Assembly (NCBI GenBank): GCA_964371255.1 | Contig: CAYJKV010000003.1 | Coordinates: 8,458-72,457, forward strand | Direction: 5' to 3' | DNA length: 64,000 bases | Origin: an uncultured Candidatus Saccharibacteria bacterium | Lineage (GTDB): Bacteria; Patescibacteriota; Andersenbacteria; UBA10190 | In this document: positions 3,107-29,574 of the stretch, piece after piece | Layout of the letters: each line of letters starts with the position of its first letter | How positions within the stretch are numbered: position 1 is the first letter of the stretch | The notes under the pieces: model-generated | The model's input: the letters and a program-made list of their open reading frames with translations, nothing else | The model's database searches: none | What the model was told of the DNA's origin: nothing | Made by a program: the position numbers and the translations under genes

Positions 3107-3148
3107 TTGTCATAAAGATTTGACAAAATGCTATTTGTGGCGTATAAA
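3107..3148 (+). promoter_or_regulatory. sigma70-like promoter (TTGACA-17-TATAAA) overlapped by inverted repeat TTGTCA-N8-TGACAA
   Basis: -35 TTGACA at 3120-3125, a 17-nt spacer, and -10 TATAAA at 3143-3148. A 6-bp inverted repeat at 3107-3126 overlaps the -35. The nitroreductase-fold gene starts about 25 bp downstream. Confidence 0.5.
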
Positions 3149-3172: not shown

Positions 3173-4195
3173 ATGCTACAAAAAACCCCAAAACCAGCCG
3201 CCCAACAGCTCATATCTGCCAATACTTTAGCACGGCACATTATTCCATCTGCCATTCTGGCACCGTCCGCCCATAATACCCAACCTTGGAAATTTGAAAC
3301 TTCGTCAAACGTGATTGACATTTTTATCGACTGGAGCCGTCACTTAACTATATCCGATCCAACTCTCCGTCAACTTTATGTCAGTCTTGGTTGTGCTACG
3401 GCCAACGCGCTAAATGCTGCCAATTACTGGAACATGACAGCCGCTGTTCAATATTTCCCAGACGGTGCTGGTAAAGATAAACCGGTCGTGCGTCTAAGCT
3501 TCGCACCTGCCCACAAACCGGGAGAACACAATCAAGCGGAGGCAGACATGTTTGCGGCCATCGTCCAGCGGCACACCAACCGGTCTTTCTTTGATGAGCA
3601 GCCCCTGACTGTCGATGAACAAAAGGCTCTTAACCAGGACATTGATCAAAGCATCACCACCTTCGTCTCTGATCGTAACCAGATCGAACAAATCGCCCAA
3701 ATATCCCAAGAGGGGACTTTTAGCACTTTATCCCGCAAGGAATTTAAGGAAGAATTGTCTCATTGGGTGCGCAATAGTTGGACTTACCAGCATGACGGCA
3801 TGCCCGGTTATGCTATGGGCATTCCTGCCCCCCTTTCCCTGGTTGCTCCGATGATGGTTCGCATTGCCCCAATTCATGTTCAGGAAGCGCCCAAAACTAA
3901 ACAGCAAGTTGCCAGTTCCTCGACTCTGGCTATCTTTTCTACCGATACTGACACGCCTGTTGATCATCTAAAAGTTGGCCAGCAACTCCAGCAAGTCTGG
4001 CTCAACGCGACCGCGGCCGGATTAGCCGCCATGCCTGTGGTTGCCGCCATAGAAGCTGGCGAAGAATATCGCAACAGGTTGCGCGACATTACTCATGCCA
4101 AAACCTACCCCCAGTCTTTATTGCGTATCGGCCATTCATCTGCCACCAATCTTCGTGCCACACCCCGCCGTACGCTCGACGAATGCGTCCGCTAA
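3173..4195 (+). CDS. nitroreductase-fold flavoprotein (tandem or extended type, Acg/SagB-like size)
   Basis: Nitroreductase signature PSAHNTQPW near the N-terminus. The 340 aa is longer than classical ~200-aa nitroreductases, suggesting a tandem or extended fold. Confidence 0.6.
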   Translation: MLQKTPKPAAQQLISANTLARHIIPSAILAPSAHNTQPWKFETSSNVIDIFIDWSRHLTISDPTLRQLYVSLGCATANALNAANYWNMTAAVQYFPDGAGKDKPVVRLSFAPAHKPGEHNQAEADMFAAIVQRHTNRSFFDEQPLTVDEQKALNQDIDQSITTFVSDRNQIEQIAQISQEGTFSTLSRKEFKEELSHWVRNSWTYQHDGMPGYAMGIPAPLSLVAPMMVRIAPIHVQEAPKTKQQVASSSTLAIFSTDTDTPVDHLKVGQQLQQVWLNATAAGLAAMPVVAAIEAGEEYRNRLRDITHAKTYPQSLLRIGHSSATNLRATPRRTLDECVR

Positions 4196-4196
4196 T

Positions 4197-5306
4197 TTAG
4201 CTTTTCAAAATCTCCGCGACTTTTCGTGCCGCTTCTTCCCGCGCGGCAAAGTGAATTCGTAAGTATCCAGTTTCTTTACTGCTATCGTTAAACAATATGT
4301 TCGCCGGTGTTGTTACGATCTTTTTCTTGATCAATTCCTCCACTACTGCCATATCCGTCGGCCGGTCATGTTTCATCAGCATGTAATAAGTTGCGGGTAC
4401 GTGTAGGGGACTAAAACCATAATGAACAAACGCCTCTTCCAACACTGCTTTATTACGGAGTAACATTTCCCTCAAGTCACTGACGTATTGGTTTAGCTCC
4501 GGCAGATTATTTTTTAGCACCTCTGCCAGCACATGCTGGGACACCGTCGATCCTCCGATATACAGCGCATCGTGCCGCACTGCCATCTCTTCAATCCGTT
4601 CCGGGCTGGTTATGGCAAATCCCACGCGCCAGCCGGGAATCGCAAATGACTTTGACCAGCTGCGCACCAAGACCGTCTTTGACCAATCCATTTTCTTGTA
4701 GTCCGCGTCATCCTTCGGCGGATTGTCCCAGATAAATTCCCGATACATTTCATCCAATACCAGCAAACAATTCTTGGCCTTCGCCGCTTCGCTTAACTTC
4801 TTTAACGTCTCAAGAGACGCAGTCTGTCCCGTCGGATTAGCCGGAGAAGTAATAATGACCCCATCCACCTCATCCATTTTTTCTATCACAACATCCCAAT
4901 CAAGTTCTTCCCCAATCCTGGTTGGCAAAAAAACTATTTTATAGCCCAATGCGTTCAGCAGTATTTCATGCGCTATATAAAAAGGTTCTGGCAGCAGTAC
5001 CTTAGCACCCGGTTTAAGATCGGTTAATAAAGCGCTAGTTATTCCGGCCATCGCTCCGGCCACGGACATCACGTTTTCTACTTCAATATGCCACTCTCGT
5101 GAGTCTAAATATTGTACTAACGCCTCCCGATAAGCCGGCACGCCACGCTTGTTGTCGTACCGCGAAATTTGCTGGATCGGTACTTTATGGAGAGTCTCTA
5201 CCAAAACCTCCGGCAGATCCGTATCAATTACTCCCTGCGCTAAATCAATCGCCCCTTCCTTCTTAGCCCTTTCGGCTAATTCTCTGATCCCTAATTGTAT
5301 AGTCAT
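4197..5306 (-). CDS. class I/II PLP-dependent aminotransferase
   Basis: Motif SWSKSFAIPGWRVGFA around the PLP-lysine. Its 369-aa size and overall aminotransferase-like architecture support the call. It is convergent with the nitroreductase gene, 1 bp apart. Confidence 0.75.
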   Translation of the reverse strand: MTIQLGIRELAERAKKEGAIDLAQGVIDTDLPEVLVETLHKVPIQQISRYDNKRGVPAYREALVQYLDSREWHIEVENVMSVAGAMAGITSALLTDLKPGAKVLLPEPFYIAHEILLNALGYKIVFLPTRIGEELDWDVVIEKMDEVDGVIITSPANPTGQTASLETLKKLSEAAKAKNCLLVLDEMYREFIWDNPPKDDADYKKMDWSKTVLVRSWSKSFAIPGWRVGFAITSPERIEEMAVRHDALYIGGSTVSQHVLAEVLKNNLPELNQYVSDLREMLLRNKAVLEEAFVHYGFSPLHVPATYYMLMKHDRPTDMAVVEELIKKKIVTTPANILFNDSSKETGYLRIHFAAREEAARKVAEILKS

Positions 5307-5493
5307 ATCGTCCTATAATATACAACAATTCCAATCCTCACAAACTTAAAAATCCGCGCCGGGTCACCTTTAGGTGATCCTCTCTGCGGCGGGTAGAACC
5401 TCGCCGCGCCGGAAAAAACCCGGGTGTTAAAGAGGCGCGGTCGTTATTATCCGGGGTGGTTACGGATCAACTATCTTCCGCTATACTAAATTC

Positions 5494-6726
5494 ATGACAA
5501 AAAACCTTTTTAAAAAATTAGCATCAACACCTAACACCAACCCAGAACCTCCTAAACCGATTTTCTTTAGCTTATCTAATTCAGACGACGCTGCCCGATT
5601 GTCTGATCTCCTAGACCAGAATCCGCACATCAAGATTATTGACACTTACGACACCCAGCTCAAAGAATTGTTTACCCTGAATAATCCCGCTTTAAAAATG
5701 AACCCGCCCGAATTGGCTAAGCAGTTCGAGGCGTACCAAAAAGAACACTACCAAGACCTCGATCCGCGACAGGCAGGAAGCTGGGTTTATCTTCCCTGGC
5801 GGTTCGTGTTGCTCCACCTTCTTCAAGACAAAGATTTCCAGCAAGTCCGCACCGGCCGCAATCGCAACCTGATCACACCGGAAGAACAAGTAAAATATTA
5901 TAACAGCACCATCGGCATTGCCGGACAGTCCGTCGGCAATAGCTGCACCTTGAGCATCGTCTTAACCGGCGGCGGTAAGCATCTCAAAATTGCCGATCCG
6001 GACACACTAGAGCTGACTAACTTAAACCGCATCCGCGGCTCCATCGCCGATCTGACAGAACCGAAAGTATACATGTCCGCCCGCCAAATTTATGAACTGA
6101 ATCCCTATGCCGACATTACCATGTTCACTGACGGCATCACTGAGGATAATATCCAGGAATTTTGCGATGGGCTGGATGTGATGGTCGAAGAGATAGACAA
6201 TCTCGAAATGAAAATCCGTCTGCGTCAGGAAGCGCAAGTCAGAAAGATTCCCATCGTCATGGCCACTGACAATGGTGATAGCGGTGTGCTCGATGTCGAG
6301 CGTCACGATCTGGCAGATAATATCCCGCCTTTTCATGGACGGGGTGGTGATGACATCGCTGAACGTGTAGTTGGCAAAAAATTACCCTTGCCGGCCATCG
6401 GACAGATTATCGGCGGGGAATTGCTTGGTTATGACATTGCCGAGGAACGAACCGTACGCTCGCTGCTGGAAATTGGGCGTTCTATTCCCACCTGGCCGCA
6501 GCTCGGCTCCGCCGCCACCCTCAACGGTGCTGTTGTCGCTGTCGCCGTGCGCCGTATTCTAACGGGACAGCCCATCGTCGATGATCGTGCCAACATTTCC
6601 GTACCAGCGCTTATTGAACCTGGTTACACCGACAAAGAAACTACCGAGAAGCGCCTTAAAACCATCCACGAACTCGGCGACCAATTCAACACCATAGTCC
6701 AGCAAATCCTCAAGCATTCAAAATAA
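5494..6726 (+). CDS. ThiF/MoeB/E1-like adenylyltransferase-fold protein with ~130-aa N-terminal extension
   Basis: Rossmann and E1 signature IGIAGQSVGNSCTLSIVLTGGGKHLKIADPDTLELTNLNR (GxGxxG ... DxDxxExxNLNR). No CxxC zinc motif is present. Confidence 0.65.
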   Translation: MTKNLFKKLASTPNTNPEPPKPIFFSLSNSDDAARLSDLLDQNPHIKIIDTYDTQLKELFTLNNPALKMNPPELAKQFEAYQKEHYQDLDPRQAGSWVYLPWRFVLLHLLQDKDFQQVRTGRNRNLITPEEQVKYYNSTIGIAGQSVGNSCTLSIVLTGGGKHLKIADPDTLELTNLNRIRGSIADLTEPKVYMSARQIYELNPYADITMFTDGITEDNIQEFCDGLDVMVEEIDNLEMKIRLRQEAQVRKIPIVMATDNGDSGVLDVERHDLADNIPPFHGRGGDDIAERVVGKKLPLPAIGQIIGGELLGYDIAEERTVRSLLEIGRSIPTWPQLGSAATLNGAVVAVAVRRILTGQPIVDDRANISVPALIEPGYTDKETTEKRLKTIHELGDQFNTIVQQILKHSK

Positions 6727-6804
6727 TTGCATCGTCCGTTGTCTATCATGATAGCCTCCAATCATGTGAGGGAATAACATTAAGAAGATTTCGCGTCTTC
6801 CCTC

Positions 6805-6892
6805 TGCCTCGCCCCGCATAGCCCCGCCAACGGCGGGGCGACGTGGGGATAAGGGGCCTGCCTGCCGGTAGGCAGGGATAGGGGGGGTCTGC
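6805..6892. other. GC-rich double hairpin in an otherwise AT-moderate intergenic region (terminator or REP-like)
   Basis: Hairpins GCCCCGCCAACGGCGGGGC (6821-6839) and CCTGCCTGCCGGTAGGCAGG (6857-6876) lie between the ThiF-like stop and the NUDIX start. Confidence 0.45.
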
Positions 6893-6926
6893 AAACCAAC
6901 ACTTTCTAACTTAATCGATCGCATCA

Positions 6927-7409
6927 ATGAAAACAGCCAAAGAAAACAATGCGTTATTTGAAGTCTCCTTAAAATTCATCATCAAGGATGAAACTGATAA
7001 AATATTACTGCTTAAAATGCCCAAAACAGGGCCTATGGGTGGGTATTATGATTTGCCGGGTGGAAGAATAAAGGAACATGAAAAATCAAAACCATTCAGT
7101 GAAATTATTTCTCGAGAACTTACAGAGGAGCTCGGCACAAAGCCACGGATTACTTTTAATCAAATTCCCGTTGCTGCAGGACGGCACACCTATCCCAGAC
7201 CATCCTCGGGTGACGATGGACATATTTTCTGGGTGTTCTTTGAAGGCCTATTTCAAGGAGGAGAGATAGAGATATCCCCCGAACACGCTGGCTATAATTG
7301 GATTAGTTTAGGTAAGCACAATCTTGATAAATACTTTGTGCGAGGCCCATGGGAAGGAATGTATAACTATTTTTATAAGAGATTTCCACCTAAATTAATC
7401 CAAGATTAA
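6927..7409 (+). CDS. NUDIX hydrolase
   Basis: Nudix box GGRIKEHEKSKPFSEIISRELTEELG (Gx5Ex7REuxEExGu). Confidence 0.75.
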   Translation: MKTAKENNALFEVSLKFIIKDETDKILLLKMPKTGPMGGYYDLPGGRIKEHEKSKPFSEIISRELTEELGTKPRITFNQIPVAAGRHTYPRPSSGDDGHIFWVFFEGLFQGGEIEISPEHAGYNWISLGKHNLDKYFVRGPWEGMYNYFYKRFPPKLIQD

Positions 7410-7511
7410 TTTTTAAATTCAGACTATTAAGAACGAGTTGGGAAGTTATAATCACCCGACAACTATTTGCGATCAAACCAAACATACCAAGCAACTGTTC
7501 CTAATGTGAAA

Positions 7512-8222
7512 CTAGTCATATTCCTTATCTGATTTCATTATGACGATTGCTTCATCAAGCAACTTTTGAAAATTTCTATTTTCCCTCCAAGCTTGTCGCA
7601 ACTTATTTCTTAGTATTTGGTGCTTGGGGTAACCCCTGTCCTCAGATAAAATCACAGCATCGAATTCAGGTTCATTCAACAGAATCGTTAGCGCTTCTTT
7701 CAAATTATCGCTTTGCTTCATATTTAATCCGTTCTTCTTCAGATAATTTCTATAGTAATGCAGAAATTGAAGATGCATGATTTCATGGCAAATTGTTGTA
7801 ATCGAATCCGGGAGGCTACGCCACAACGAAACCATGAACCAATTTCCCTTTTCGTTATATGGGCACATGTAGCCTGTCGTCCAAAAACAATTAAACTTCT
7901 CAGAACAAATCGGCTTACCTGTCATTTTCTCTAAAGCTTGCCAGTACTGTTGTTCCACCATCTTCCAGGCGACTTCTAGTGATCTTATTTCTTCTTTAAT
8001 TATCAAATCCCTGTATTTACGTTTCTGATCACCTTGCAGATACTCCCTGATTATTTCTTCAGCGTCTGTAAAACTGGCTTTTAACACCTGCGATAATAAA
8101 TTCTTTGGGATATGGCCGACTTCGTCCTTCCAGTCCAGTCCCCAGAGATTTTTATCTTTAGCAATTAAAACCCAGCTCCAAGCGTCCTTCACGATATCAT
8201 ATTGAAATTTTATTTGTGACAT
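7512..8222 (-). CDS. hypothetical protein with HExxH motif (possible zinc metallopeptidase)
   Basis: ORF with ICHEIMHLQFLHYY (HExxH). The start is taken at ATG 8222 (MSQIKFQYD). The longer TTG-initiated version to 8336 would run into repeat copy A. No family was recognised. Confidence 0.45.
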   Translation of the reverse strand: MSQIKFQYDIVKDAWSWVLIAKDKNLWGLDWKDEVGHIPKNLLSQVLKASFTDAEEIIREYLQGDQKRKYRDLIIKEEIRSLEVAWKMVEQQYWQALEKMTGKPICSEKFNCFWTTGYMCPYNEKGNWFMVSLWRSLPDSITTICHEIMHLQFLHYYRNYLKKNGLNMKQSDNLKEALTILLNEPEFDAVILSEDRGYPKHQILRNKLRQAWRENRNFQKLLDEAIVIMKSDKEYD

Positions 8223-8281
8223 ATAAATTTCTATCAATATGTACCCTGTTAACCGTGTATCCCAACAGTAGCACCTATTTT

Positions 8282-8477
8282 CTCTTGATATACTATAAAA
8301 CCACATAATCCCATGGCTCCGTCGTCCCAATAACAATCACCGCGACTCGCTATTCAACCTGCCTATCTACCCTCCCCGCCCCTAAAAAATGGGGGAGTAG
8401 ACCTAGCCTGCCAGCAGCTCACTACTGACGTTAATCAAACGCTAACGTCCTTCTCTGTTGTTAAAGCCCGATGTCAG
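8282..8477. repeat. Direct repeat copy A (~196 bp), a degenerate duplicate of the 5' end of the downstream adenylating-enzyme gene (pseudo-fragment)
   Basis: Nearly identical to 11200-11396. Relative to copy B the start codon is lost (ATA versus ATG). An A-run of 6 versus 8 causes a frameshift, and the reading frame terminates within 7 codons. Confidence 0.85.
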
Positions 8478-8721
8478 CCGGCGAGGGAGAGGTTGGGCTC
8501 ACCGAAACAATTGTCAACCAACACTGACAAAACCATTTATTAATAATTGTCAAAAATCAGTTCTAACACTATGATTACACGTTGTATCTACTGTTGGTTC
8601 TTTAGACAAAAATCCCACATACAAGACCTTGTTGAAGAGCGCATAACGCTAATCGCCAGCAATGTTGCCAGCGGCTACTTCACAATGTACGTGTGTTAGG
8701 TATAGAAAGGAGGTTAATACG

Positions 8722-8880
8722 ATGAAGACAGAGCAAGTCAAGGGCATGCAAGAGAAACAGACTTACGGATTCAGCGGAAAACAAGAATCTGCCAAGATTT
8801 CTCTGAAAGCCACCAAAGTTCATGTCCAAAAGAGAGGAATGAATTCTGGCATCTCAGGCGGAAGTTCCCAATGTTGCTGA
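8722..8880 (+). CDS. candidate RiPP precursor peptide (52 aa, Lys-rich leader, C-terminal ...GISGGSSQCC)
   Basis: AAGGAGG sits 8 nt upstream of ATG 8722. The ORF track's longer 8662 start lacks an RBS. The peptide lies immediately upstream of an RRE-radical-SAM-SPASM gene and is followed by a hairpin terminator. Confidence 0.5.
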   Translation: MKTEQVKGMQEKQTYGFSGKQESAKISLKATKVHVQKRGMNSGISGGSSQCC

Positions 8881-8892
8881 ACAGATAAACTC

Positions 8893-8936
8893 GCGTGGCA
8901 TGTAATTGCTTTTTTGCATCATGCCACGCCTTTTTT
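8893..8936 (+). terminator. intrinsic terminator/attenuator between the precursor peptide and the radical SAM gene
   Basis: Stem GCGTGGCATG...CATGCCACGC is followed by CTTTTTT. Confidence 0.6.
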
Positions 8937-8950
8937 AAAAGGAGAACAGA

Positions 8951-10285
8951 ATGTCACCAACATATGTGAGGTTAGCTGATAGTGCCATATTCAAATCACG
9001 CTATGAGCAGAGGTACCTGATCAACACCTCTTGTCGTAACCGGGAACGCATTCTAATTGAAGGAGGGGCTGAACAAGTATTGCTTTTTCTATTTTCAGGA
9101 AAAAGTATCAGTGGCGCATGTACACATTTTTGTCTGGATTCAGAACAACTGACTGCCTATATACAAGGGCTGGTAGCCGAAAATGTTGTTGCTTGGTGCA
9201 CCAGTGCGATTGACTCCACAGCAAAGTGCTACAACACAGAGCCGCCACTCGATAGTATAAACATTCTTCTCACAAACGCGTGCAATCTTCATTGTGTACA
9301 CTGTGGCTTCTCGAGTGGCAAACCAATCGTGGGGGAACTAACTGGAGATGAGTGGATTAGTGTTCTTCAGGAAGCAGAACAGCTCGGTGTTTTTGAGGTC
9401 AACGTTTCCGGAGGAGAGCCAACGCTTCATAGAAATTTTATTCAGATAGCAAAACATATTTCTTCGATCCCATGCTTCAATGCCAATCTGAATACTAATG
9501 GTGTATCATTACCACCCCAGTACATTGAAACCATCGCGCAGGCCTTCACTAGTGTCCAAATTAGTATTGACGATGTTGTAGCATCAAAACATGACAAGTT
9601 TCGTGGTCGCAGAGGAAGTTTCAAGCGGTCAATAGAAACAATAAGACAGCTCGTCAATACAGGCGTCGAAACGAATATCGGTTTTACGTTAACCGCTGAT
9701 AATATTACAGCCCTAGATGATATTGTTGAGTTAGCGGAAAACTTAGGTGTCACTGTGCTGAACATCGGTCTAGTTGCCAATCTTGGTCGTGCTCACGATA
9801 ACCTACTACTAAAGGAGTTTGGAACAGGGCCGTGTCATAACAGTCCATTCATGGACCAAGTGTACCAGAGGATAAAGAAGTTATCGGTTAGTTCATCAAA
9901 TGTCCAGATTCTCCTGCCGTTTCGCATCCCTGACAAAAACCGGCCCGCGCCATTACAAGATAAGCGATACATTTGTGACGGCGATAACACGCAGGTTCTC
10001 TACATAACAGCGAATGGAAATATGATGCCTTGTGACAAGTTACCAGTTGAGGCGTTCTCTTACGGCAATGTGCGGCAGAACACGATACTGGGTACTTGGC
10101 AGTCTGATCGGATGAAAAAGTTCAAACTAATGAGTCCTAATGAGCTTCCCAAATGTAAAAAGTGCCCCGATTTAAGATTGTGTGGCGGAGCTTGTGTAGC
10201 ACGTGCTTATCAAGAGGGTGGTAGTCTGGATTCCTCAGATTGGATATCATGCGTTATTGCACAAAAGGTTTCTCAAGACTACTAG
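8951..10285 (+). CDS. radical SAM / SPASM-domain peptide-modifying enzyme with N-terminal PqqD-like RRE
   Basis: Cx3Cx2C motif NACNLHCVHCGF. The C-terminal Cys-rich SPASM region includes CDGD...MPCDKL...CKKCPDLRLCGGACVARAY. The first ~90 aa have a PqqD/RRE-like pattern. AAGGAG lies 7 nt upstream of the ATG. Confidence 0.8.
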   Translation: MSPTYVRLADSAIFKSRYEQRYLINTSCRNRERILIEGGAEQVLLFLFSGKSISGACTHFCLDSEQLTAYIQGLVAENVVAWCTSAIDSTAKCYNTEPPLDSINILLTNACNLHCVHCGFSSGKPIVGELTGDEWISVLQEAEQLGVFEVNVSGGEPTLHRNFIQIAKHISSIPCFNANLNTNGVSLPPQYIETIAQAFTSVQISIDDVVASKHDKFRGRRGSFKRSIETIRQLVNTGVETNIGFTLTADNITALDDIVELAENLGVTVLNIGLVANLGRAHDNLLLKEFGTGPCHNSPFMDQVYQRIKKLSVSSSNVQILLPFRIPDKNRPAPLQDKRYICDGDNTQVLYITANGNMMPCDKLPVEAFSYGNVRQNTILGTWQSDRMKKFKLMSPNELPKCKKCPDLRLCGGACVARAYQEGGSLDSSDWISCVIAQKVSQDY

Positions 10286-10360
10286 GCACCAGGAGAACGA
10301 TCTATCTCCTGTGCCTTTTTTATTTGTACTATCGCAGTATTATTATGTAGTTTTATTAGT

Positions 10361-11110
10361 ATGATGGATAAGCCTTGGTGGAAAACAGCCTTTAACGAAT
10401 CGTATCTTACTGCTTTTGATGACTACTACTCTGCAGTAAAAGGGGAAAAAGAGGCAGTTTTTCTTATTCAGGCATTGTCGATTAAGAAAGGCGCCAGTGT
10501 CCTTGATCTTGCATGCGGGCAAGGAAGGCACGCTATTGCACTTGCACAGAATGGCATGAAAGTAACTGGTCTTGATACTTCGGCTATTCTTTTAAACGAA
10601 GCTGGGAAAAGAGCGAAAATGGAAGGAGTGACAATCTCGTTTGTGAATGGAGACATGCGTTCATATCATGATACTAATAAATTTGAGGCTGTGCTTGTTC
10701 TGGGTAATTCGTTTGGATATTTTAGCGACAAAGATAACGAGAATGTATTATCAAATATCTCCACTTCTTTACAAGTTGGTGGTTGGTTGGTCTTAGATTT
10801 ACCAAATACACCTGGTATGCTCCGCCGGAAAATGACGGGGAAACAAATTCAGAAAAACGTGAACACAACAGTGACAACGCGCACGGTTAATTTCAACCCG
10901 GAAACATTTCGTGCAGATTTACAGTGGGAAATTTATCAAAACACAAAAAAGGTCTCATTCAATGGAAATTTGCGTTTGTACACGCCACCAGAGATTAATC
11001 ATCTTCTTAGCGAGCGAGGCTTGGTTATCAGAAAAACGTATGGTTCATTCAGTGATGAAACATACAATATTGATACAAAGCGTTACCTGGTAATAGCGCA
11101 AAAGATATAA
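10361..11110 (+). CDS. class I SAM-dependent methyltransferase
   Basis: Motif I VLDLACGQGRHAIALAQNGMKVTGLD, in a 249-aa protein. Confidence 0.75.
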   Translation: MMDKPWWKTAFNESYLTAFDDYYSAVKGEKEAVFLIQALSIKKGASVLDLACGQGRHAIALAQNGMKVTGLDTSAILLNEAGKRAKMEGVTISFVNGDMRSYHDTNKFEAVLVLGNSFGYFSDKDNENVLSNISTSLQVGGWLVLDLPNTPGMLRRKMTGKQIQKNVNTTVTTRTVNFNPETFRADLQWEIYQNTKKVSFNGNLRLYTPPEINHLLSERGLVIRKTYGSFSDETYNIDTKRYLVIAQKI

Positions 11111-11199
11111 TTAATATCACAAATAAGTTTATATTCTAAGGAAATTAGTCTTTGAGAACAGTTGAGCATTGTGGGCGCCATTCAGTAGCCTCAACCTCC

Positions 11200-11396
11200 C
11201 TCTTGATATACTATAAAACCATATGATCCCCTGGCTCCGTCGTCCCAATAACAATCACCGCGACTCGTTATTCAACCTGCCTCTCTACCCTCCAGCCCCT
11301 AAAAAAAATGGGGGAGTCGATCTAGCCTCCCAGCAGCTCACTACTGACGTTAATCAAATCTTAACGTCCTTCTCTGTTGTTAAAGCTCGCCGTCAG
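11200..11396. repeat. Direct repeat copy B (~197 bp), the intact 5' end of the PaaK-like gene
   Basis: Matches 8282-8477 with a few substitutions and a 2-nt A-run difference. It contains the ATG 11223 start and an open frame continuing into the 540-aa ORF. Confidence 0.85.
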
Positions 11397-12845
11397 TTAT
11401 CTGACGTAAGTGAGGAGGAATGGCAAGGCAGGGGAGAGAAGAGGGCGTTGGCCCTTTTCCGAGCAGCCGCTGAATATGTTCCCGCCTACAAAGATTTTCT
11501 TAAGAAGAATAAGGTTAACCCGGATAAAATTAAAACCGTCAGTGACTTCAAACAGGTGCCCTTCGTCGATAAAGAAAACTACCTGCGTGTTTACCCCTTA
11601 CAACAGCTTTGTTGGTATGGTGACTTGTCTTTCTCTCAAATAATTTCTTTTAGCTCTGGTTCATCTGGACAGCCATTGTTTTGGCCTCGCGGTCAAATAC
11701 TAGACACAGAAACTACCCTTGAACATGAATTATTCCTGTCATCGTTTTTTAATATTGATACAAAGTCCACCCTATTGCTCAATTGCTTTTCCATGGGTAT
11801 GTATGTCGCCGGTAGCATCACATTAAATAGCGTCCTTAATTTAGGCCGAAAAGGTTATCCCATAACTGTCGTTACTCCCGGAATAGACATGGAAGATATC
11901 ATCCGAGTCATCCCTGAACTAAATCCTCATTTTAACCAAATCATCATTGCTGGTTATCCACCTTTTGTAAAAGATATCCTCGATGAAGGCATCCGAGCAG
12001 GAATTAACTGGCAGGACATTTCCATTAAATTCATCTTAGCTGGTGAAGGATATAGTGAAACTTGGCGAAAGCACATATCCAAAATTGTTAATGACGGGAG
12101 CCCTCTCTACGATTTCATAAATCTTTACGGATCAGCTGACGCAGCTGTGTTAGCTCATGAAACCCCTACTTCTATTATAACGCGATCGCGACTGGCGGGA
12201 GATGATAAAGTTCGAGAAAAACTCTTTGGTAGTTCACTGTTACCATCCTTATTACAGTATTATCCTGAGCATAAATTCTTTGAGCCTGTAAACAACGAAT
12301 TGATCTTCTCTACCACCGGCGGCGTCCCTCTTGTCCGCTATAATATTCACGACAAGGGAGGAATATTAAGCAAAAAGGACATAACAAGTAATATCCCGGA
12401 ACTGGATGAGTATCATACGGAATTAAAACGCCAAAACCATCTCTGGAATTTGCCCTTCGTGTATGTTTTTGGTAAAAGCGACTGCACTATAATGTTGTAT
12501 GGTCTTAATATTTACCCGGATAACATAAAAACTGCCTTGGAAAGTGAAGCCTTAAGAAAAACAACTACTGGTCGGTTTACTATGACATCTGAATTCAACG
12601 CCAATATGGATCAATATTTGCTCATTAATGTTGAGCTTGCCCCCGCTACAGAGCCTTCTCAAGCCTTGACCAGTGATATTAGCGACGCGATTGTATCAAC
12701 TCTTAAGAAAATGAATCGTGAGTACCAAAAATTATTTAACTCCATTGGCAACAAAGCCCTACCCACAATACGTCTGCACAAAAAAGGGGAAGGTAATCTG
12801 TTCTCACGAGCCGGCAAACAAAAATGGGTGAGAAATAATCCATAA
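11223..12845 (+). CDS. phenylacetate-CoA ligase / coenzyme F390 synthetase-family adenylate-forming enzyme (CapK-like)
   Basis: AMP-binding motif SFSSGSSGQPLFWP (PaaK-family SSGTTG-like). The N-terminal LRAAAEYVPAYKDFL region is typical of the PaaK family. The protein is 540 aa. Confidence 0.7.
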   Translation: MIPWLRRPNNNHRDSLFNLPLYPPAPKKNGGVDLASQQLTTDVNQILTSFSVVKARRQLSDVSEEEWQGRGEKRALALFRAAAEYVPAYKDFLKKNKVNPDKIKTVSDFKQVPFVDKENYLRVYPLQQLCWYGDLSFSQIISFSSGSSGQPLFWPRGQILDTETTLEHELFLSSFFNIDTKSTLLLNCFSMGMYVAGSITLNSVLNLGRKGYPITVVTPGIDMEDIIRVIPELNPHFNQIIIAGYPPFVKDILDEGIRAGINWQDISIKFILAGEGYSETWRKHISKIVNDGSPLYDFINLYGSADAAVLAHETPTSIITRSRLAGDDKVREKLFGSSLLPSLLQYYPEHKFFEPVNNELIFSTTGGVPLVRYNIHDKGGILSKKDITSNIPELDEYHTELKRQNHLWNLPFVYVFGKSDCTIMLYGLNIYPDNIKTALESEALRKTTTGRFTMTSEFNANMDQYLLINVELAPATEPSQALTSDISDAIVSTLKKMNREYQKLFNSIGNKALPTIRLHKKGEGNLFSRAGKQKWVRNNP

Positions 12846-12953
12846 TTTCAGGTTATTTATCATCGTTCTCAATTGAAGCCCATTTCAATCCCCGATATGC
12901 CAAACACACCTGCCCTGAAATCATGCCCTTTGCGCCACAATTATCTTGCCATA

Positions 12954-12974
12954 TTGTCAATAACGGTTGACAAA
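12954..12974. promoter_or_regulatory. palindromic motif TTGTCAATAACGGTTGACAAA in the long intergenic region upstream of the 922-aa gene
   Basis: 7-bp inverted arms TTGTCAA/TTGACAA. It closely matches ATGTCAATAACCATTGACAAAA at 16523-16544. Related TTGTCAATAAATTGTTACAA and TTGTAACAA palindromes lie nearby at 13085-13180. Confidence 0.45.
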
Positions 12975-13215
12975 ACGCCCCAAAACTCGCTGTAGATCGT
13001 CGCTATATACCCCATAAATCAAGCCGTCTTAGGCCCTTTCAAGACAGAATCCTGCACTGTTTAACCATGTTCGTATATTGTTTGTCAATAAATTGTTACA
13101 AATTGCCTATATATACCGATTGACGTAAACCTATTCTCCTGCCTATTGTAACAATACTCAGTTTTCTGCTCGTCCTTTCCAACTAAATTTCCTCTGTTTC
13201 GAAAGGAGCTACCCA

Positions 13216-15984
13216 ATGGGTACCTCACGCCGCGTGAGGGGACTCGCCATGGAAAGTCTGGAAAGAAGGATTTATCTTTCTGCCGACCCCATTAGCCTGT
13301 CCCAATGGCAGAGCCAAGCCTGGTGTACAGGCTCGGTTTCTGAACAATCCGGTACAATCGTTGTAGCCGCCAATGGTCAAAGCCAGGGAGGCGACCATGT
13401 CGCCCTCACTGACTCGCCGGCCGTGGTTGACAGTGATCTCTATCTTGAGTTCACGCCGCAAGTCAACCATCTTGGCAACGACAAGGTGGTCTTCGAGATC
13501 AGTAATGGCAGTGGTACGCGCGTCGTCATCAACCTCGAACGCAACGACGCTGGTAACCTCTTTAGCATTACTGAACAAGAAGGGTATGGTGCACCGTCAT
13601 ATATCCAGACCGTCACCATCACCAACAACACTTCACACCGCCTGGAAATGAATGTGGATGAAGCAAGTTTTACTCTCTTCATCGACCAGCTGCCGCTCGC
13701 CACTTACCCTGGACAGCTGGCCGCGAACTCCTTTGTTCGTCTGTGCGTTCGCGGTGATAGGGAAATCGCGCAATTGCAGCTGACTGGTTTAGGCGGGATG
13801 TTCTCGGACTATACCAGTTCCTTAGGTGAATCTGGTGAAGCATCCGACCCCGCTGATCCGCTTGATGCGTCGCTTTGGCAACAGCAAACCTGGAGTACCG
13901 GTCAAGTCTCATCGACCGGCAGCCAGATTAGCCTTAGCGCCAACGGCGGAGCGCAGGGTGGAGACCATGTCGTAATCTTGCAGTCCCCAGTCGTTCCGGG
14001 AGATTTCTTTCTGGATATTCTTCCCAGTGTCAACTACGCTGCTGCGAACGCTGACAGCGACAAAGTCTTGGTTGAAATCGGCAACGGTACCACCTCGCGC
14101 CACACGGTCAATCTTGTCCGTGACAGCAATGGTGATCTGTACACAATTGTCGAGACCACAGATCCAGAGGCTCAGATTAGCCAGGTGACAATCACCAACG
14201 GCCAATCTCATCGCCTCGAGGTTAATGCGACAGAAACCGACTTCTCCGTCTTTGTCGATGAATCGCTCGTCGCTGCTTTCTCTGAGCCTTTAGCGGCCGA
14301 TGCTTTCGTCCGTTTGGGGCTGCGTGGTGACAAGGCTTTAGCGCAGGTAAGTCTCACTGGCTTAAATGGCGTCTTTACACCATATACCAGCGAGCTGATT
14401 GCCGGCGCTGAACCTCAAATCATCGAGCTCTTTGCTCTAGTTACTCTGGATGCCGCTGTCCTTCCAGTGGTGGAAGTGCCCAGCTTTGTAGCTAGCCTCT
14501 CCGCGCCGGCACCGACAGTGCCAAGCATGGGTACCGTTGAAACTGCCAGCTTCGCGCAACGCATTGCTCGCAGTATTACGTCTGCTAATACGATTGCTCG
14601 CACTGGTCGGACATATTACGACGCCGACTACGGAGTAGACGTCTACGCCGGTTCTAACCAGTACTTCGTGGAGTACAATAACGGCGCTGTTGAACTGCGA
14701 GTCATCCCCTCCGGTCTACCAGCCGGCCAGGACCACCCGTTTGTTCATGAAGTAACGCCGATTCTCCGCAACACTGCAGACGTCGGTCAGGTTGCTAAGC
14801 CGGTTAGTCGAACTGGCGCGACCTTCTACGATCCGGCACGCGGTATTGATGTCTATGCCGGTGAGGGCAAATACTTGATCGAATACACGGATGGCACCAT
14901 TGAAGAACGTAATCGACCTAGCGGCGGATACATTCCTCTTCCGGAAGACTTCACCGTCGGCGGCTCGGACTATTCCGAGCCCATGTCTGCCTTCGGACCT
15001 TCCGCGCAAGTCCTCGGTCTTTCCACGGATGGCACCAGCCCCAAGTCTAGCAGCGAACTCTACTATATCGGCCCTTCGTATGTGTCGAATAGCGGACAGC
15101 AGCGCATCGCCGGACCAGGTCAAGTTTTTCTGCAGGATCCTGTCACTAAAACGATTCTTCTTCGTCCCGTGGCAGATGGTGACGTAGCTCTGCAGAGGCC
15201 CGTATCCCCAGTAGTCACTATTGCCACCCATCCCGCTACGGTCATTACCGACCTCTTCCAGCAAACCTATGGCCGGACGCCAACCAGTGAAGAACTCTCT
15301 TACTGGCGCCAACGTACGGATAAGAGTGGGGATTCATTACTTGGAGCGATGGAGTATGCGCATCAGCAGTCTGTTGATGCAACTATAACTCAGTTAGGGT
15401 TAATAGATAGCAGTGCTATTGGATACTTTGATTCAGAGAGTCCAATGTCAGCATATGACCTTCCTGAGTTTCACAGCATTTCTCAGGTCCCCGTTGCAGA
15501 ATTCGTGGTGTCCTTAAATCTTGGCTTAATCGACCGTGATCAAGCAGCAGCCACGATTTATACGCACATCGAAGAGCTTGAGTTATGGTGGAACACTACG
15601 GTGCAAACGCATCTTGATGCATTCAGTTTATGGAAGAACGAATTAAGTTTTGTACCACCATCGCCCGTAAGCATGGAAGCGTTGTCGTTTTACATCAACA
15701 GTCCTGATTACGTAGTCACTGTAGACTCTTTACCATCATTTGTAACTGGAAGTATACATGATGGTGCCTCAACATCTATCCGAATTCGTCGTATTGGTAG
15801 TATCACTGGCACTCAAGTAACACTTGATGCCTCAGGCAATATCATTCAAGTAGGCGAGCAAGGAGCAGGCTCTGACGACATGATAAGCCCCACTAGCACC
15901 CCAGGACACATTTCACTCATAGACGGTGCACGACTTTGGGGGCATGTAACCTTGGACGTGCTTCCTTGGCTAATTTTTCAGTAG
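13216..15984 (+). CDS. large repetitive secreted or surface protein (two ~190-aa tandem N-terminal repeats, two ~80-aa repeats, DUF4214-like motif)
   Basis: AAGGAG RBS upstream of the ATG. Internal duplication is visible (QSQGGDHVALTDSP... versus AQGGDHVVILQSP...; TGRTYYDADYGVDVYAG versus TGATFYDPARGIDVYAG). A DUF4214-like LFQQTYGRTPTSEELSYWRQRTDKSGDSLLGAMEY lies near residue 700. The first ~2.1 kb is GC-rich and the last ~0.65 kb is AT-rich. Confidence 0.7.
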   Translation: MGTSRRVRGLAMESLERRIYLSADPISLSQWQSQAWCTGSVSEQSGTIVVAANGQSQGGDHVALTDSPAVVDSDLYLEFTPQVNHLGNDKVVFEISNGSGTRVVINLERNDAGNLFSITEQEGYGAPSYIQTVTITNNTSHRLEMNVDEASFTLFIDQLPLATYPGQLAANSFVRLCVRGDREIAQLQLTGLGGMFSDYTSSLGESGEASDPADPLDASLWQQQTWSTGQVSSTGSQISLSANGGAQGGDHVVILQSPVVPGDFFLDILPSVNYAAANADSDKVLVEIGNGTTSRHTVNLVRDSNGDLYTIVETTDPEAQISQVTITNGQSHRLEVNATETDFSVFVDESLVAAFSEPLAADAFVRLGLRGDKALAQVSLTGLNGVFTPYTSELIAGAEPQIIELFALVTLDAAVLPVVEVPSFVASLSAPAPTVPSMGTVETASFAQRIARSITSANTIARTGRTYYDADYGVDVYAGSNQYFVEYNNGAVELRVIPSGLPAGQDHPFVHEVTPILRNTADVGQVAKPVSRTGATFYDPARGIDVYAGEGKYLIEYTDGTIEERNRPSGGYIPLPEDFTVGGSDYSEPMSAFGPSAQVLGLSTDGTSPKSSSELYYIGPSYVSNSGQQRIAGPGQVFLQDPVTKTILLRPVADGDVALQRPVSPVVTIATHPATVITDLFQQTYGRTPTSEELSYWRQRTDKSGDSLLGAMEYAHQQSVDATITQLGLIDSSAIGYFDSESPMSAYDLPEFHSISQVPVAEFVVSLNLGLIDRDQAAATIYTHIEELELWWNTTVQTHLDAFSLWKNELSFVPPSPVSMEALSFYINSPDYVVTVDSLPSFVTGSIHDGASTSIRIRRIGSITGTQVTLDASGNIIQVGEQGAGSDDMISPTSTPGHISLIDGARLWGHVTLDVLPWLIFQ

Positions 15985-16039
15985 TCCATCGTACTCTTTA
16001 GGAGACAGATTTATGGCCGCATGTAACATTGCGGCTTTT

Positions 16040-16390
16040 TTATACTACCATTCCTAAAACCATCATTATTCCAATAATAAATACCCCCAAACTTAAATGT
16101 AACCACCCAGACAGATATCTGCGATGCAGAATTCGATAAACTCCAAAAAGAGCCAGCATACCAATACTACCTATCCATAAAAAACCAAATAAACCCGTCA
16201 ATATTAGTAATAAAATTGACGTCTCGTCTCGCATCCAGGCAAAACGATTAATAGAAGAGAAGAATACACTTAAGAATCCAAGAGACATTGAAACTAATAA
16301 AGGCAGCCACCACGACTCGACATATAACCTTATAAATCTTTCAAAGGATGGTAGGGACTGAGCAGGTATCTTTTGACCGTTATTTACCAT
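16040..16390 (-). CDS. hypothetical small membrane protein (3-4 TM helices)
   Basis: Hydrophobic ORF with no recognised family. Confidence 0.35.
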   Translation of the reverse strand: MVNNGQKIPAQSLPSFERFIRLYVESWWLPLLVSMSLGFLSVFFSSINRFAWMRDETSILLLILTGLFGFLWIGSIGMLALFGVYRILHRRYLSGWLHLSLGVFIIGIMMVLGMVV

Positions 16391-16522
16391 AAATAATTTA
16401 TACTCTTAAAAAAGATATATCTCAATCTGTATGCCTCATAAAAGTAGGACATTACACGAGATGACATAGCCATAATCTTCTAAACAACTAAAATATTCCT
16501 TTAGCAGAGCGTAAAATAAAAA

Positions 16523-16564
16523 ATGTCAATAACCATTGACAAAAACCTGTTGCCATAATATAAA
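16523..16564 (+). promoter_or_regulatory. sigma70-like promoter (TTGACA-17-TATAAA) embedded in palindrome ATGTCAATAACCATTGACAAAA
   Basis: -35 at 16536-16541, a 17-nt spacer, and -10 TATAAA at 16559-16564. It lies about 50 bp upstream of the secreted-protein gene. Confidence 0.5.
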
Positions 16565-16615
16565 TAAAAGCCCAAAGTAAGCGAAATTAATTATTTAAAT
16601 AAATCTGTGAAAACA

Positions 16616-17512
16616 ATGAAAAGTCTAATTATACTTACAGGAGCGATTTTATTGCTCTCCCCATCAATCGGCTACGCGGTCACCAGTCAGGTTTGGGTAG
16701 ACGATTTCGCTGTGAGTTTATGCGGTAATCAAAGCTTCGCCTTCTCAGGAACAGCTGAACTCAATAGTTCGGAAGAATTACTGGTGAAACTAGACAATGT
16801 GATTATTAATCACACCTTAAGCGACATTAATTGGATAACCGGACTGACACCGGTTGGTGTTGGTGCTCACACGATCAGAGCGGAAATAGTTCGCACTGCT
16901 GATAATTACATCGTAAACCAGCACCAAAGACCCTTTGTTGTTGCTTCTTGTGTGGTAAATCCCACGCCAGCCCCATCCAATGAAGGCAGCAATAGTGATT
17001 CTGACGGAGGAGGTAGTTCTGGCGGTGGTGGCGGTGGAGACGGGGGAGACGACGGCAACAACACGCCAGAACCGGCAGCTAGAAAACCTAAAGTTAAAGG
17101 CGCTAAAATCAAAGGCTCGAAATGCAGCATAGCTAACCTATCAGTACCTGCCGTTGTCGCCCGTAACTTCTCGCAAGTCTTCGGCCGCTCTATTACCCAC
17201 GCTGAAAGTGTTTATTGGAAAACAAGAGCCAGAGGCGACAAATGTAATGAAATTACTTTGGCGGGCGCGATGCGATGGCATAAACAAAAAGGTTCCGCCG
17301 GACCTACCAGAAGCCAAAACGTAGCGGGTATCAATCATGTCTCAGGTAAAGTACATCAATCTCAGATAAATTCGTTATTCCTCTCGGTTTATAACCGCAA
17401 CCCTAGCATCAGTGAAAATTCATACTGGCTATCCCGAATAAACGACAAACCATCCGTGGCCGCCATGCTTGGTGCTATGAAATTTCATTTGGCAACCCGT
17501 ATATCGCACTAG
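16616..17512 (+). CDS. secreted Gly/Asp-rich protein with two DUF4214-like motifs
   Basis: Signal peptide MKSLIILTGAILLLSPSIGYA. A low-complexity region SDSDGGGSSGGGGGGDGGDDGNN is present. Motifs ESVYWKTRARGDK...LAGAMRWH and ENSYWLSRINDKPSVAAMLGAMKFH also occur. The ATG 16616 start is preferred over the track's GTG 16607. Confidence 0.65.
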   Translation: MKSLIILTGAILLLSPSIGYAVTSQVWVDDFAVSLCGNQSFAFSGTAELNSSEELLVKLDNVIINHTLSDINWITGLTPVGVGAHTIRAEIVRTADNYIVNQHQRPFVVASCVVNPTPAPSNEGSNSDSDGGGSSGGGGGGDGGDDGNNTPEPAARKPKVKGAKIKGSKCSIANLSVPAVVARNFSQVFGRSITHAESVYWKTRARGDKCNEITLAGAMRWHKQKGSAGPTRSQNVAGINHVSGKVHQSQINSLFLSVYNRNPSISENSYWLSRINDKPSVAAMLGAMKFHLATRISH

Positions 17513-17729
17513 GCGTACCGATTAAATTTATTACCGCCAATGTTACAGATAGCAATTGCATTCTTGGCTTGAACTAGTAACTATCGTAACCACTTTCTAC
17601 GGTTGCTCTCTTAAACAATCAACAAACCAATCTAGAAGTATGTCCGTACTATCAGTGCGGTACAAAATGTCATCCCCATGCATATTAGTAAAACCTATTA
17701 CCCGCTTGCTATACTTAAAAAGGAAGTCT

Positions 17730-18707
17730 ATGGATACCATACAAAAACCTGTAATAAAAAAACGTTCTGCAATTATTGATGCCGCCATTCTTGATTTGCT
17801 TGAGTACAGAAAAAGTTGCGATCAGCAACTATATTATTCAATAGATGAAAACATCAGGTTCTTTGAGGCTGCTCGTTCGTTGCCTCGTTATATTTTTTGG
17901 CTCCTTACAGAATACTCTAAAATCAACGGACATCGTATCTTAGAGCTTTCAGATTTTCATTTGCGTGAGGGTGAATGGGAAAAGATGTTGCTTGGTCAAC
18001 TGCTTACCCTGGAAAGAAAAAACATTCCAGACCTGATCGGACCATTAAGGAAACAGCTATCAAAAGAAATCCGAACAATAACTCAGCAAAAAAATGAACC
18101 AATCGTAGTAATTAATATGGGCTGTGGCGGAATGGAAACCGAGCGAAGAATAGCCTTAGGGCTATTCAAAAAACCTCTTACCCAACCCATCATCTTTATT
18201 GGTATCGATTCTTCCCCAGCTGCCATCAAGGTTGCTCAGCAAAATTTGCGTAGTTTTAGTAAGGAATTTACGCAATTGGAAAGCCTTACCCCTGATGTCA
18301 TTCATTCAATCAAAAATATCCAAACAGACAAACCTGTTCAATTTAAAGTATTTATTGGCGATGCCCTAAATATTCATAATTATGCCGAGCCTCAAACAAT
18401 CGACATAATTTTTCATTCCAAGTTTCATCATCATCTGTCAGATCAAGACAAAAGACGCTTTGACGATATGATAAGAAAGACTGCTTGTTGTGCAATCGAA
18501 TTCGATGATTATCGGGGTGCCTATTTACCTATACTCTCTATCCTAACCGGCTGGAATAAGCCCATTCTACTAAATGGCGCTGTTATTAGCAGTCTGCGTG
18601 ATCCAACTAAAGAGGATATTAAAAACTACAAAAAAGAAGGATGGATAACCAAAATCTATCCGTTAAAAGGATTTTTGAAAATACATCACTCGTCCCAAAC
18701 CTGTTAA
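17730..18707 (+). CDS. putative class I SAM-dependent methyltransferase-fold protein
   Basis: Gly-rich motif VINMGCGGMETERRIALGL followed by IFIGIDSSPAAIKVAQQNL. The start is taken at ATG 17730, which has AGGAAG upstream. The track's TTG 17556 gives a longer version. Confidence 0.4.
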   Translation: MDTIQKPVIKKRSAIIDAAILDLLEYRKSCDQQLYYSIDENIRFFEAARSLPRYIFWLLTEYSKINGHRILELSDFHLREGEWEKMLLGQLLTLERKNIPDLIGPLRKQLSKEIRTITQQKNEPIVVINMGCGGMETERRIALGLFKKPLTQPIIFIGIDSSPAAIKVAQQNLRSFSKEFTQLESLTPDVIHSIKNIQTDKPVQFKVFIGDALNIHNYAEPQTIDIIFHSKFHHHLSDQDKRRFDDMIRKTACCAIEFDDYRGAYLPILSILTGWNKPILLNGAVISSLRDPTKEDIKNYKKEGWITKIYPLKGFLKIHHSSQTC

Positions 18708-18737
18708 TATAGAAGCACCACTTAACCAGCAGTCTTT

Positions 18738-29557: not shown

Positions 29558-29574
29558 ATTGTAACTATAGTATT

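Follow-up and report, generated by a model that had tools for sequence, protein, structure and literature searches.

A putative modified-peptide gene module between two copies of the start of a PaaK-like gene in a candidate phyla radiation bacterium

How does a peptide-maturation cassette come to lie exactly between two copies of the start of its neighbouring gene? The question is raised by a 64-kb stretch of an Andersenbacteria-like chromosome within the candidate phyla radiation (CPR), contig CAYJKV010000003.1, which we refer to as the window. Genes for a small peptide, a radical S-adenosylmethionine (rSAM) enzyme and a methyltransferase are bracketed here by direct repeats that duplicate the 5' end of the next gene. 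This gene encodes a PaaK/F390-synthetase-like adenylate-forming enzyme of 540 aa (11223-12845, + strand) and is the anchor gene of the locus. A first-pass annotation had proposed that the cassette was inserted or transposed into this gene, leaving a long target-site-like duplication. We compared the proteins, repeats and alleles of the window with those of metagenome contigs coded L002-L187. As judged from these sequences, the data fit recombination and not transposition, and the module sits in a recombination hot spot directly upstream of the conserved PaaK-like gene.

The repeat pair itself is real. A repeat search, a MAFFT alignment and a blastn self-comparison agreed in pairing 8282-8477 (copy A) with 11200-11396 (copy B), both on the + strand, over 198 columns with 90.9% identity, 2 gaps and an E value of 2e-72. 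The two copies had been called nearly identical and are instead about 90% alike. In the blastn comparison of the window with itself, this was the sole long repeat within the 64 kb. The homology extends further left to CAGTAGC (8264 in copy A, 11183 in copy B), and each copy thus takes in a conserved promoter element of about 40 bp. Copy B holds the functional promoter end and codons 1-58 of the PaaK-like gene. Its N-terminal 60 residues align with homologues down to 43% identity, and because they are conserved at the protein level, copy B is coding and represents the working 5' end of the gene, with its ATG at 11223-11225, as had been proposed. Compared with functional copies in other contigs, copy B displays 9-19 synonymous and 0-2 non-synonymous codon differences. 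Copy A is a decayed, frame-shifted remnant of the same codons. It carries ATA (8305-8307) in place of ATG and an A-run of 6 rather than 8, both as first described, together with one extra base in the preceding C-run. In total, about 13 substitutions or indels are private to copy A, and the promoter core is unaltered. The frame was said to be lost after 7 codons; this holds for an out-of-frame ATG at 8313, while reading from the ATA leads to a stop at about codon 27. Most likely, copy B is the working gene start and copy A is the displaced start of an earlier allele, whose coding part is decaying and whose promoter core has been kept.

Other identities for the repeat were considered and rejected. 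With regard to a structured RNA or riboswitch, Rfam in gathering mode returned only tRNAs, Rfam in E-value mode on 8150-11500 returned none, and folding of 11220-11400 was not significant (z = -1.35). A non-coding leader with a later true start is ruled out by the protein-level conservation of the N-terminal 60 residues. Extending copy A past 8477 with internal deletions, so as to match the truncated copy c0 of contig L179, gave non-significant local alignment scores of 17-19 against a shuffle mean of 15.6 (sd 2.8). Two sequence features of the repeat were noted in addition. The homopolymer AAAAAAAATGGGGG (11300-11312; A8 then G5, PaaK codons 26-30) varies in length among copies, with A8 in copy B, A6 in copy A (8384-8394) and A7 in the 'full-length' copy of contigs L178/L179 (about 13090 in L178), where it puts PaaK out of frame. 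This variation could represent slipped-strand phase variation or an assembly error. Within the coding repeat there is also a perfect stem of 8 bp, GACGTTAA...TTAACGTC, with a T-rich tract after it (11346-11368 and 8427-8449). The stem is kept in close alleles only, shows no covariation, and is probably incidental.

We then turn to the part of the repeat that lies before the start codon. In every PaaK orthologue examined, down to 47% protein identity, the arrangement (A)AGTAGCC, 9-13 nt, CTTGATATACTATAAAAC is found directly 5' of the ATG. In copy A (8264-8304, +) it reads CAGTAGC, a 12-nt spacer and CTTGATATACTATAAAAC; in copy B (11183-11222, +) it stands directly before the ATG and has a different type of spacer. 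The 18-nt core occurs exactly twice in the window against an expectation of 0.05. There is no Shine-Dalgarno sequence and the ATG follows 4-6 nt past the motif. Because of this spacing and the lack of a Shine-Dalgarno sequence, the element, which we take to have promoter activity, is probably leaderless, and the PaaK mRNA would likewise have no leader. The spacer of copy A, which we term the resident type, matches that found beside a gene for an HExxH-motif protein in L005 and in L179 c0, and does not match copy B. Between A and B, 7 of the 12 spacer positions differ, compared with 19 of 196 in the rest of the repeat (Fisher p = 1e-4). Since the promoter spacers differ in this manner, A and B were not identical at birth.

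Comparison with related Andersenbacteria-like contigs revealed that the same promoter/5' fragment can be present 3 or 4 times in direct order. L002 harbours three promoter/5' copies and a further promoter-only copy. Its c1 keeps 60 codons and is followed by a methyltransferase; c2 keeps 21-28 codons and is followed by a 71-aa protein, a methyltransferase, a 42-aa peptide, an rSAM enzyme and a 225-aa methyltransferase; the promoter-only copy (35 bp kept) precedes a NUDIX gene. L178/L179, from an Andersenbacteria assembly, contain four copies in direct order. Here c0 (about 86 codons) precedes a third peptide/rSAM module with a 455-aa rSAM enzyme and a 246-aa methyltransferase, c2 (21-28 codons) the same module as in L002 c2, and c3' (66 codons) a Peptidase_S66 with a 387-aa rSAM enzyme, and c4 is full and constitutes the PaaK gene itself. 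In L184, about 80 codons are followed by a Peptidase_S51 and a YcaO cluster, and in the window, the 58 codons of copy A are followed by the 52-aa peptide, 444-aa rSAM enzyme and 249-aa methyltransferase of the cassette. The truncation points thus differ (about 21-28, 58, 60, 66, 80 and 86 codons), the repeat length varies by cargo from about 35 to about 290 bp, and no common motif was found at the junctions inside the coding stub. As cargo, the arrays hold a peptidase and three peptide/rSAM/methyltransferase modules that are unrelated to one another, with pairwise identities of only 22-25% among the three rSAM types.

What the truncated copies have retained is the promoter core. It has no mismatch in 7 of 7 truncated copies, the probability of which at 10% divergence is about 2e-6. 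On the other hand, 4 of the 6 coding remnants have lost their start or frame (window copy A, L179 c0, c2 and L184). Intact truncated N-terminal open reading frames are present in L002 c1 (60 aa) and L178 c3' (73 aa, on 17 contigs), with mostly synonymous differences. As four remnants are broken, there is no general selection on a truncated N-terminal peptide. The stubs would be kept for the promoter, or are simply recent, and do not seem to be kept for a peptide.

The distribution of cassettes and repeats indicates that the repeats belong to the locus and not to the cassette. The cassette family of the window is found in other CPR genomes (L167-172, L185-187) without PaaK, without the promoter and without flanking repeats, and in L088 and L176 one cassette type lies directly upstream of promoter-PaaK without a duplication. 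Nor are the copies that flank a cargo sisters, L178 c3' and c4 being 79% identical. Across c2, the cassette and the promoter, L002 and L178 share 98.8% identity; they become foreign to each other from about codon 5, and the next copy displays the reciprocal pattern. Since the switch occurs just past the promoter, and reciprocally in the next copy, a crossover took place at the invariant promoter core. A further trace is seen in L179, where 5853-6326 is 90% identical to 10833-11308 of the window, a segment comprising the methyltransferase 3' end, a 72-bp spacer (11111-11182, +), the promoter and 28 codons. The remainder of a window-type cassette has been replaced by other sequence in L179. Because L179 retains the cargo-promoter junction, this junction is old and shared.

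These results do not agree with a cassette-borne insertion accompanied by a target-site-like duplication, as first proposed. Different cargo stands behind the same repeats (L002, L178/L179, L184), the cassette family occurs elsewhere without them, the repeat length differs per event, and the spacers of A and B differ. Repeats without the cassette, and the cassette without repeats, had been named beforehand as the two observations contrary to the proposal, and both were found, the former as repeats with other cargo.

An 'empty site' with a single copy of the segment had also been anticipated, and it exists in L005, whose PaaK is 95% identical. The order there is aminotransferase, ThiF, NUDIX, HExxH gene, promoter and PaaK, with one segment copy and no cassette, so that near-identical genomes differ in whether they carry the module. 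Identity to the window is 100% over 4494-7170, 84-91% over 7173-8477, 85-96% in copy B, about 70% over 11404-11600, about 90% up to 12082, and again 100% over 12083-12782. Since blocks of 100% identity flank the diverged stretch, the cassette lies inside a tract of about 4.9 kb that was exchanged by homologous recombination with crossovers in the flanking genes. L005 is therefore not a simple pre-insertion state, as it forms a mosaic with the window. The window and L005 come from sibling samples, and the alternation of 100% blocks with 70-91% blocks indicates recent fine-scale recombination within one CPR population. A further contig, L166, is 99.6% identical to the window and breaks at the repeat. 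We also found a foreign patch inside the PaaK gene, 11404-11600 (+), starting 8 bp past the repeat end. It is 68-75% identical to L005, L086 and L002, while its flanks are 90-95% identical; the best match was 76%, and no donor for the patch was found in the data compared.

How could such a locus arise? The reading that we favour, and to which we give slightly better than an even chance, is a recombinase-free displacement array, in which illegitimate joins in the PaaK 5' end are combined with homologous crossovers and the products are subsequently spread by homologous recombination. An incoming DNA molecule with cargo, promoter and PaaK would join illegitimately inside the first 90 or so codons of the resident gene and then cross over homologously further downstream, a displacement by homology-facilitated illegitimate recombination (HFIR). 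The resident promoter and 5' stub would be left upstream, and the incoming copy would restore the gene. The finished unit, flanked by promoter/5' repeats, would be able to move into relatives by plain homologous recombination, with crossovers in flanking genes (window versus L005) or in the invariant promoter core of about 25 bp (L178 versus L002). Repeated rounds would give rise to arrays.

Several points weigh against this displacement model. No donor was found with the window cassette type directly upstream of promoter-PaaK and without copy A, and the first step is consequently unobserved for this cassette. Copy B is 93% identical to L005, and is thus much closer to the resident clade than the adjoining patch (70%). 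Taking this contrast into account, HFIR would need either a mosaic donor or gene conversion from A to B at a later time; the start of the patch 8 bp past the repeat could also be accounted for by a circle-type integration. It is at one and the same left promoter edge that all cargo-to-promoter junctions fall, which may be due to selection, or could reflect a site-specific step. The six truncation points are all confined to the first 86 of the gene's 540 codons (chance if uniform, 1.6e-5), a clustering that hints at a further constraint. In addition, the whole case rests on metagenome contigs. The foreign patch, the common promoter edge and the clustered truncations leave room for a Campbell-type mechanism and for a site-specific system acting in trans.

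The Campbell-type mechanism is one that we consider unlikely. The repeats would recombine, a circle with the cargo and one repeat would be excised, and its re-integration by a single RecA crossover into the promoter/5' segment of a naive PaaK gene would regenerate the flanking repeats. Direct repeats of about 200 bp do flank the cargo, the L005 allele has exactly one copy, and a foreign patch right past the repeat end fits a homology limited to the repeat. The chimeric copies of L178 relative to L002, with their crossover near the ATG, are also what a single crossover predicts. However, the PaaK body of L178 differs from that of L002 (62% beyond codon 126), and a double crossover with a linear donor accounts for the chimera equally well. 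The window and L005 differ over a 4.9-kb tract whose crossovers lie in the flanking genes rather than in the repeat. Moreover, a single crossover leaves one recipient-type copy, which is at odds with A and B having been some 97% alike outside the spacer, and the origin of the first repeat of each cargo is left unexplained.

A dedicated, integron-like capture is more doubtful still, and we regard it as improbable. Here the left edge of the promoter (…AAACAGTAGCC) or the palindrome TTGTCAA-N6-TTGACAA that heads each cargo would serve as the recombination site for a recombinase encoded elsewhere (for example of the Xer type), and the promoter repeat would express the captured cassettes. The array is indeed ordered, with its copies in direct orientation, one promoter edge is where all cargo-to-promoter junctions lie, in at least 6 different contexts, and palindromes with 7-bp arms and a 6-bp spacer head several cargos as well as neighbouring operons. 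A local recombinase would be unnecessary if a host enzyme acted in trans. On the other hand, the right-hand junctions vary from codon 21 to codon 86 with no common motif, and the promoter edge is the limit of conservation in single-copy orthologues too, so that functional constraint can explain the boundary. The palindrome behaves as an operator would, in that it also stands before non-cassette operons and coincides in part with a -35-like TTGACA, followed 17-19 nt later by a -10-like box. No integrase was found in the window open reading frames scanned.

It is highly improbable that one in-situ event, an insertion or a transposition, gave rise to the repeat by duplicating about 196 bp of target through a staggered cut or replication slippage, with copies identical at birth: the cargo does lie exactly between direct repeats, and A, B and L005 share some variants relative to L086 and L002, but the promoter spacers of A and B derive from different lineages, no two cargos share a repeat length, the cassette family is free of repeats elsewhere, neither terminal inverted repeats nor a transposase are present, and the cargo-promoter junction is common to L179, where most of the cargo has been replaced. 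As first noted, the cassette has no transposase or integrase; it codes solely for the peptide, the rSAM enzyme and the methyltransferase, and no recombinase was found in it or among the window open reading frames scanned. The repeat scan found no inverted repeats at the cassette ends. What distinguishes a transposon or insertion sequence, namely a transposase, terminal inverted repeats and a fixed-length duplication that is identical at birth and travels with the element, was thus not observed at this locus.

The architecture is best read as a variant of known displacement arrays. Displacement ('orphan') arrays are found at Rhs and contact-dependent growth inhibition (CDI) toxin loci and in type VI secretion system (T6SS) clusters of Vibrio cholerae (PMC5361080; PMC3967940), and T6SS effector-immunity arrays have been explained by HFIR-like displacement (PMC5361080), which has likewise been proposed for Rhs/CDI orphans. 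In those arrays and, on our reading, in ours as well, modules are gained successively at a conserved anchor gene by homologous recombination and an illegitimate join, fragments of the anchor gene lie between modules, copies in the same genome are not closest relatives, and there is no dedicated recombinase. Anchor fragments between modules, non-sister copies and motif-free junctions, which identify a displacement array, were all found here. Our locus is a mirror image of the Rhs/CDI and T6SS arrays in that its remnants are promoter-bearing 5' ends upstream of the anchor, whereas theirs are 3' tips downstream. It further differs in its cargo, which consists of peptide/rSAM/methyltransferase modules and not toxin-immunity pairs, in its CPR host, and in the active-looking promoter core kept by the remnants. 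HFIR itself is described for bacteria that can be transformed (de Vries & Wackernagel 2002; Prudhomme et al. 2002; both cited in PMC5361080). Its one-sided homologous anchor and non-homologous join fit the variable, motif-free junctions in the PaaK 5' region, although in our case the process is read from its end products. Compared with integron arrays, there are likewise ordered, exchangeable gene cassettes beside a fixed expression element. Unlike integrons, no IntI or integrase domain was found among the window open reading frames scanned and no attC-like inverted repeats in a single repeat scan of 6000-14000; the cassettes carry their own promoters, and the repeated element is a promoter with a gene stub of variable length. 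To our knowledge, HFIR has never been shown in CPR bacteria.

We next describe the module between the copies. The three genes are present as the first-pass annotation had described them, all on the + strand: the precursor peptide gene (8722-8880), the rSAM/SPASM maturase gene (8951-10285) and the gene of a class I SAM methyltransferase (10361-11110). Our results support the view that 8722-11110 is a module for a ribosomally synthesized and post-translationally modified peptide (RiPP), and the proposed layout of a RiPP maturation cassette is borne out by a conserved precursor, invariant maturase cysteines and a co-diverging methyltransferase. The precursor is a 52-aa peptide with an AGGAGG Shine-Dalgarno sequence before its start and a core ending in GMNSGISGGSSQCC. 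Small open reading frames upstream of rSAM homologues (65%, 66% and 48% identity) end in ...KISLQASKVPVRKTGMNSGISGGGYQCC, ...GMNSGITGGGYQCC and ...KISIRKRGMNSGITGGGYQCC, respectively. The precursor is thus found in four lineages (rSAM identity 100%, 66%, 65% and 48%), sharing a leader motif KIS[LI] and a C-terminal core GMNSGI[ST]GG[GS][SY]QCC. No Pfam or NCBIfam model matched a precursor with this core. Between the precursor and maturase genes lies a hairpin followed by a U-run (8893-8936, +; -21.9 kcal/mol, z = -3.6), as stable as which none of 200 shuffles folded, and which is likely an attenuator or terminator.

The 444-aa maturase matched Radical_SAM (PF04055, 1e-21) and SPASM (PF13186, 1.4e-11). 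In an alignment of 45 full-length homologues, CX3CX2C (C111, C115, C118) and the SPASM residues C342, G356, C361, C402, C405, C411 and C415 are invariant, and C434 nearly so. The rSAM and SPASM assignments of the first reading therefore stand. As for the PqqD-like RiPP recognition element (RRE) it had placed at the N-terminus, Pfam PqqD gave no match at E < 0.01. The AlphaFold2 model (pLDDT, the predicted local confidence, 92 overall and 86-98 over residues 1-100) displays, in the order of an RRE, strands 5-8, 12-17 and 20-25 and then helices 40-48, 53-60 and 64-76. A whole-length Foldseek comparison with SuiB covered about 470 columns, and the CteB profile match begins at position 53. An N-terminal RRE is thus likely on the basis of the model, and would bind the leader.

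Among solved structures, the closest relatives by sequence profile are SkfB, PqqE, CteB and SuiB, and by fold SkfB, SuiB and CteB; the best matches by sequence and fold include SkfB (2e-45 and 2e-23) and SuiB (template-modelling score 0.69). The best curated matches are sactipeptide-type maturases, all far below the equivalog cutoffs (StsB 139.6/625, SkfB 119.9/300, PapB 82/340, AlbA 73/850). Like the SkfB, CteB, SuiB and StsB-type maturases, the enzyme has CX3CX2C, a seven-cysteine SPASM motif of the form CX9-15GX4C ... CX2CX5CX3C ... C and a strands-then-helices N-terminus, and adjoins a short precursor with C-terminal cysteines. It differs in showing 25% identity or less to any characterised enzyme, and in that the window family always has a methyltransferase partner. 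At all homologous loci the methyltransferase gene (249 aa; Methyltransf_25, 6e-19) comes after that of the rSAM enzyme, and its divergence parallels that of its partner (62% and 41% identity). The search recovered about 47 close homologues of the maturase, at 37-98% identity; where a source is named they are mostly from CPR/Patescibacteria, with one labelled Planctomycetota. By sequence, the module is a previously uncatalogued member of a known enzyme kind and falls in no named maturase subfamily. The rSAM/SPASM core most likely cross-links the C-terminal Cys-Cys core through a thioether of the sacti- or ranthipeptide type, and the methyltransferase would tailor the product. A cassette homologue also occurs in Buchananbacteria (MHIG01000001, 7677-13654; L167-L169), where several RiPP-associated genes adjoin it, encoding a second rSAM/SPASM enzyme paired with a 38-aa peptide, a transglutaminase-like protease, a C39 peptidase and a DUF2268 protein. 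In this other CPR lineage it is thus part of a multi-RiPP locus.

The cargo has its own control region (8511-8575, +), consisting of the palindrome TTGTCAAccaacacTGACAA (8511-8530) and a sigma-70-like promoter TTGTCA-17-TATGAT (8547-8575). Palindromes of this family also head the cargo after L002 c2 and L179 c0. TTGTCAA-N6-TTGACAA matches at 11 sites where 4 would be expected, and a -10-like box is found 17-19 nt further on. Palindromes at 3107-3126, 8511-8530, 12954-12973, 13082-13101 and 16523-16542 head five operons of the region, including those of a nitroreductase-like gene, the cassette, a 922-aa gene and a 301-aa gene. The palindrome looks like a shared operator, and hence like the mark of a local regulon. 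Compared with a role as recombination site, an operator overlapping the -35 box is more likely.

Concerning the anchor gene, the NCBIfam PaaK model matched the 540-aa protein from residue 73 (6.7e-16), with a TIGR02155 score of 57.8 against a cutoff of 646. The protein is thus a superfamily relative of PaaK only, and not an equivalog. It has 1339 homologues, the closest of which are full length. The gene order of the clade is epimerase, nitroreductase-like, ThiF, aminotransferase, variable region, PaaK, histidine kinase, VanW, NUDIX and Ddl. The HExxH-motif protein (236 aa; open reading frame 7512-8222, - strand) is transcribed divergently from copy A and holds the same position in L005 (87% aa identity) and L179 (90%). 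It had no Pfam or NCBIfam match, and BLASTP found no relationship to the DUF2268 proteases near other cassettes.

Several further features of the surroundings were noted. In the syntenic contigs L173, L176 and L177, a HisKA_7TM histidine kinase directly follows PaaK. In the window, 12846-18737 places a 922-aa protein with internal repeats, a 301-aa protein and a 383-aa methyltransferase-like protein between PaaK and the kinase, and L086 is without 12834-17867. This represents a second slot of variable content, situated on the opposite side of PaaK. The core beside PaaK (3173-7409) encodes a nitroreductase-like protein, an aminotransferase (best match GntC-like), a ThiF/E1-like protein of the Rv1355c family and a NUDIX protein, which together with the adenylating enzyme look like a small biosynthetic pathway. 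The Peptidase_S66 among the L178 cargo is MccF-like. Further along, 39409-45708 holds a type IV pilus cluster with PilM, a PilB-like ATPase, a response regulator, a PilT-like ATPase, two pilins with a 62-bp repeat in common (43859 and 44447) and a prepilin peptidase, and RecX is encoded at 36611. Chromosomal pilus genes and RecX are no more than compatible with RecA recombination and the uptake of DNA. A small island (27458-31604) has tRNA genes as its borders and codes for an IrrE-like M78 peptidase, an Xre-type HTH protein and a Bro-N protein; it could represent a prophage or defence remnant.

What had been described as a 196-bp target duplication can now be recast as a testable architecture, in which the stubs of one anchor gene, each bearing a promoter, separate the modules for modified peptides, in bacteria whose genomes are tiny. 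We tentatively raise the possibility that the promoter and 5' stub act as both homology handle and expression element of a recombinase-free cassette platform, which swaps RiPP-type modules in this CPR clade. By the same tentative account, at least three unrelated peptide/rSAM/methyltransferase types and a peptidase would have been captured, stacked and swapped between strains. The peptide family, with its own rSAM/SPASM enzyme and methyltransferase, is of a size that permits heterologous expression. Should the arrays prove to be real arsenals, they would provide a concrete locus for strain-level chemical diversity and for gene flow in CPR bacteria, and the duplicated-promoter signature would provide a simple means to mine further cargo. 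If the platform itself proves true, it would be a functional counterpart of integrons or polymorphic-toxin arrays, dedicated to arsenals of modified peptides.

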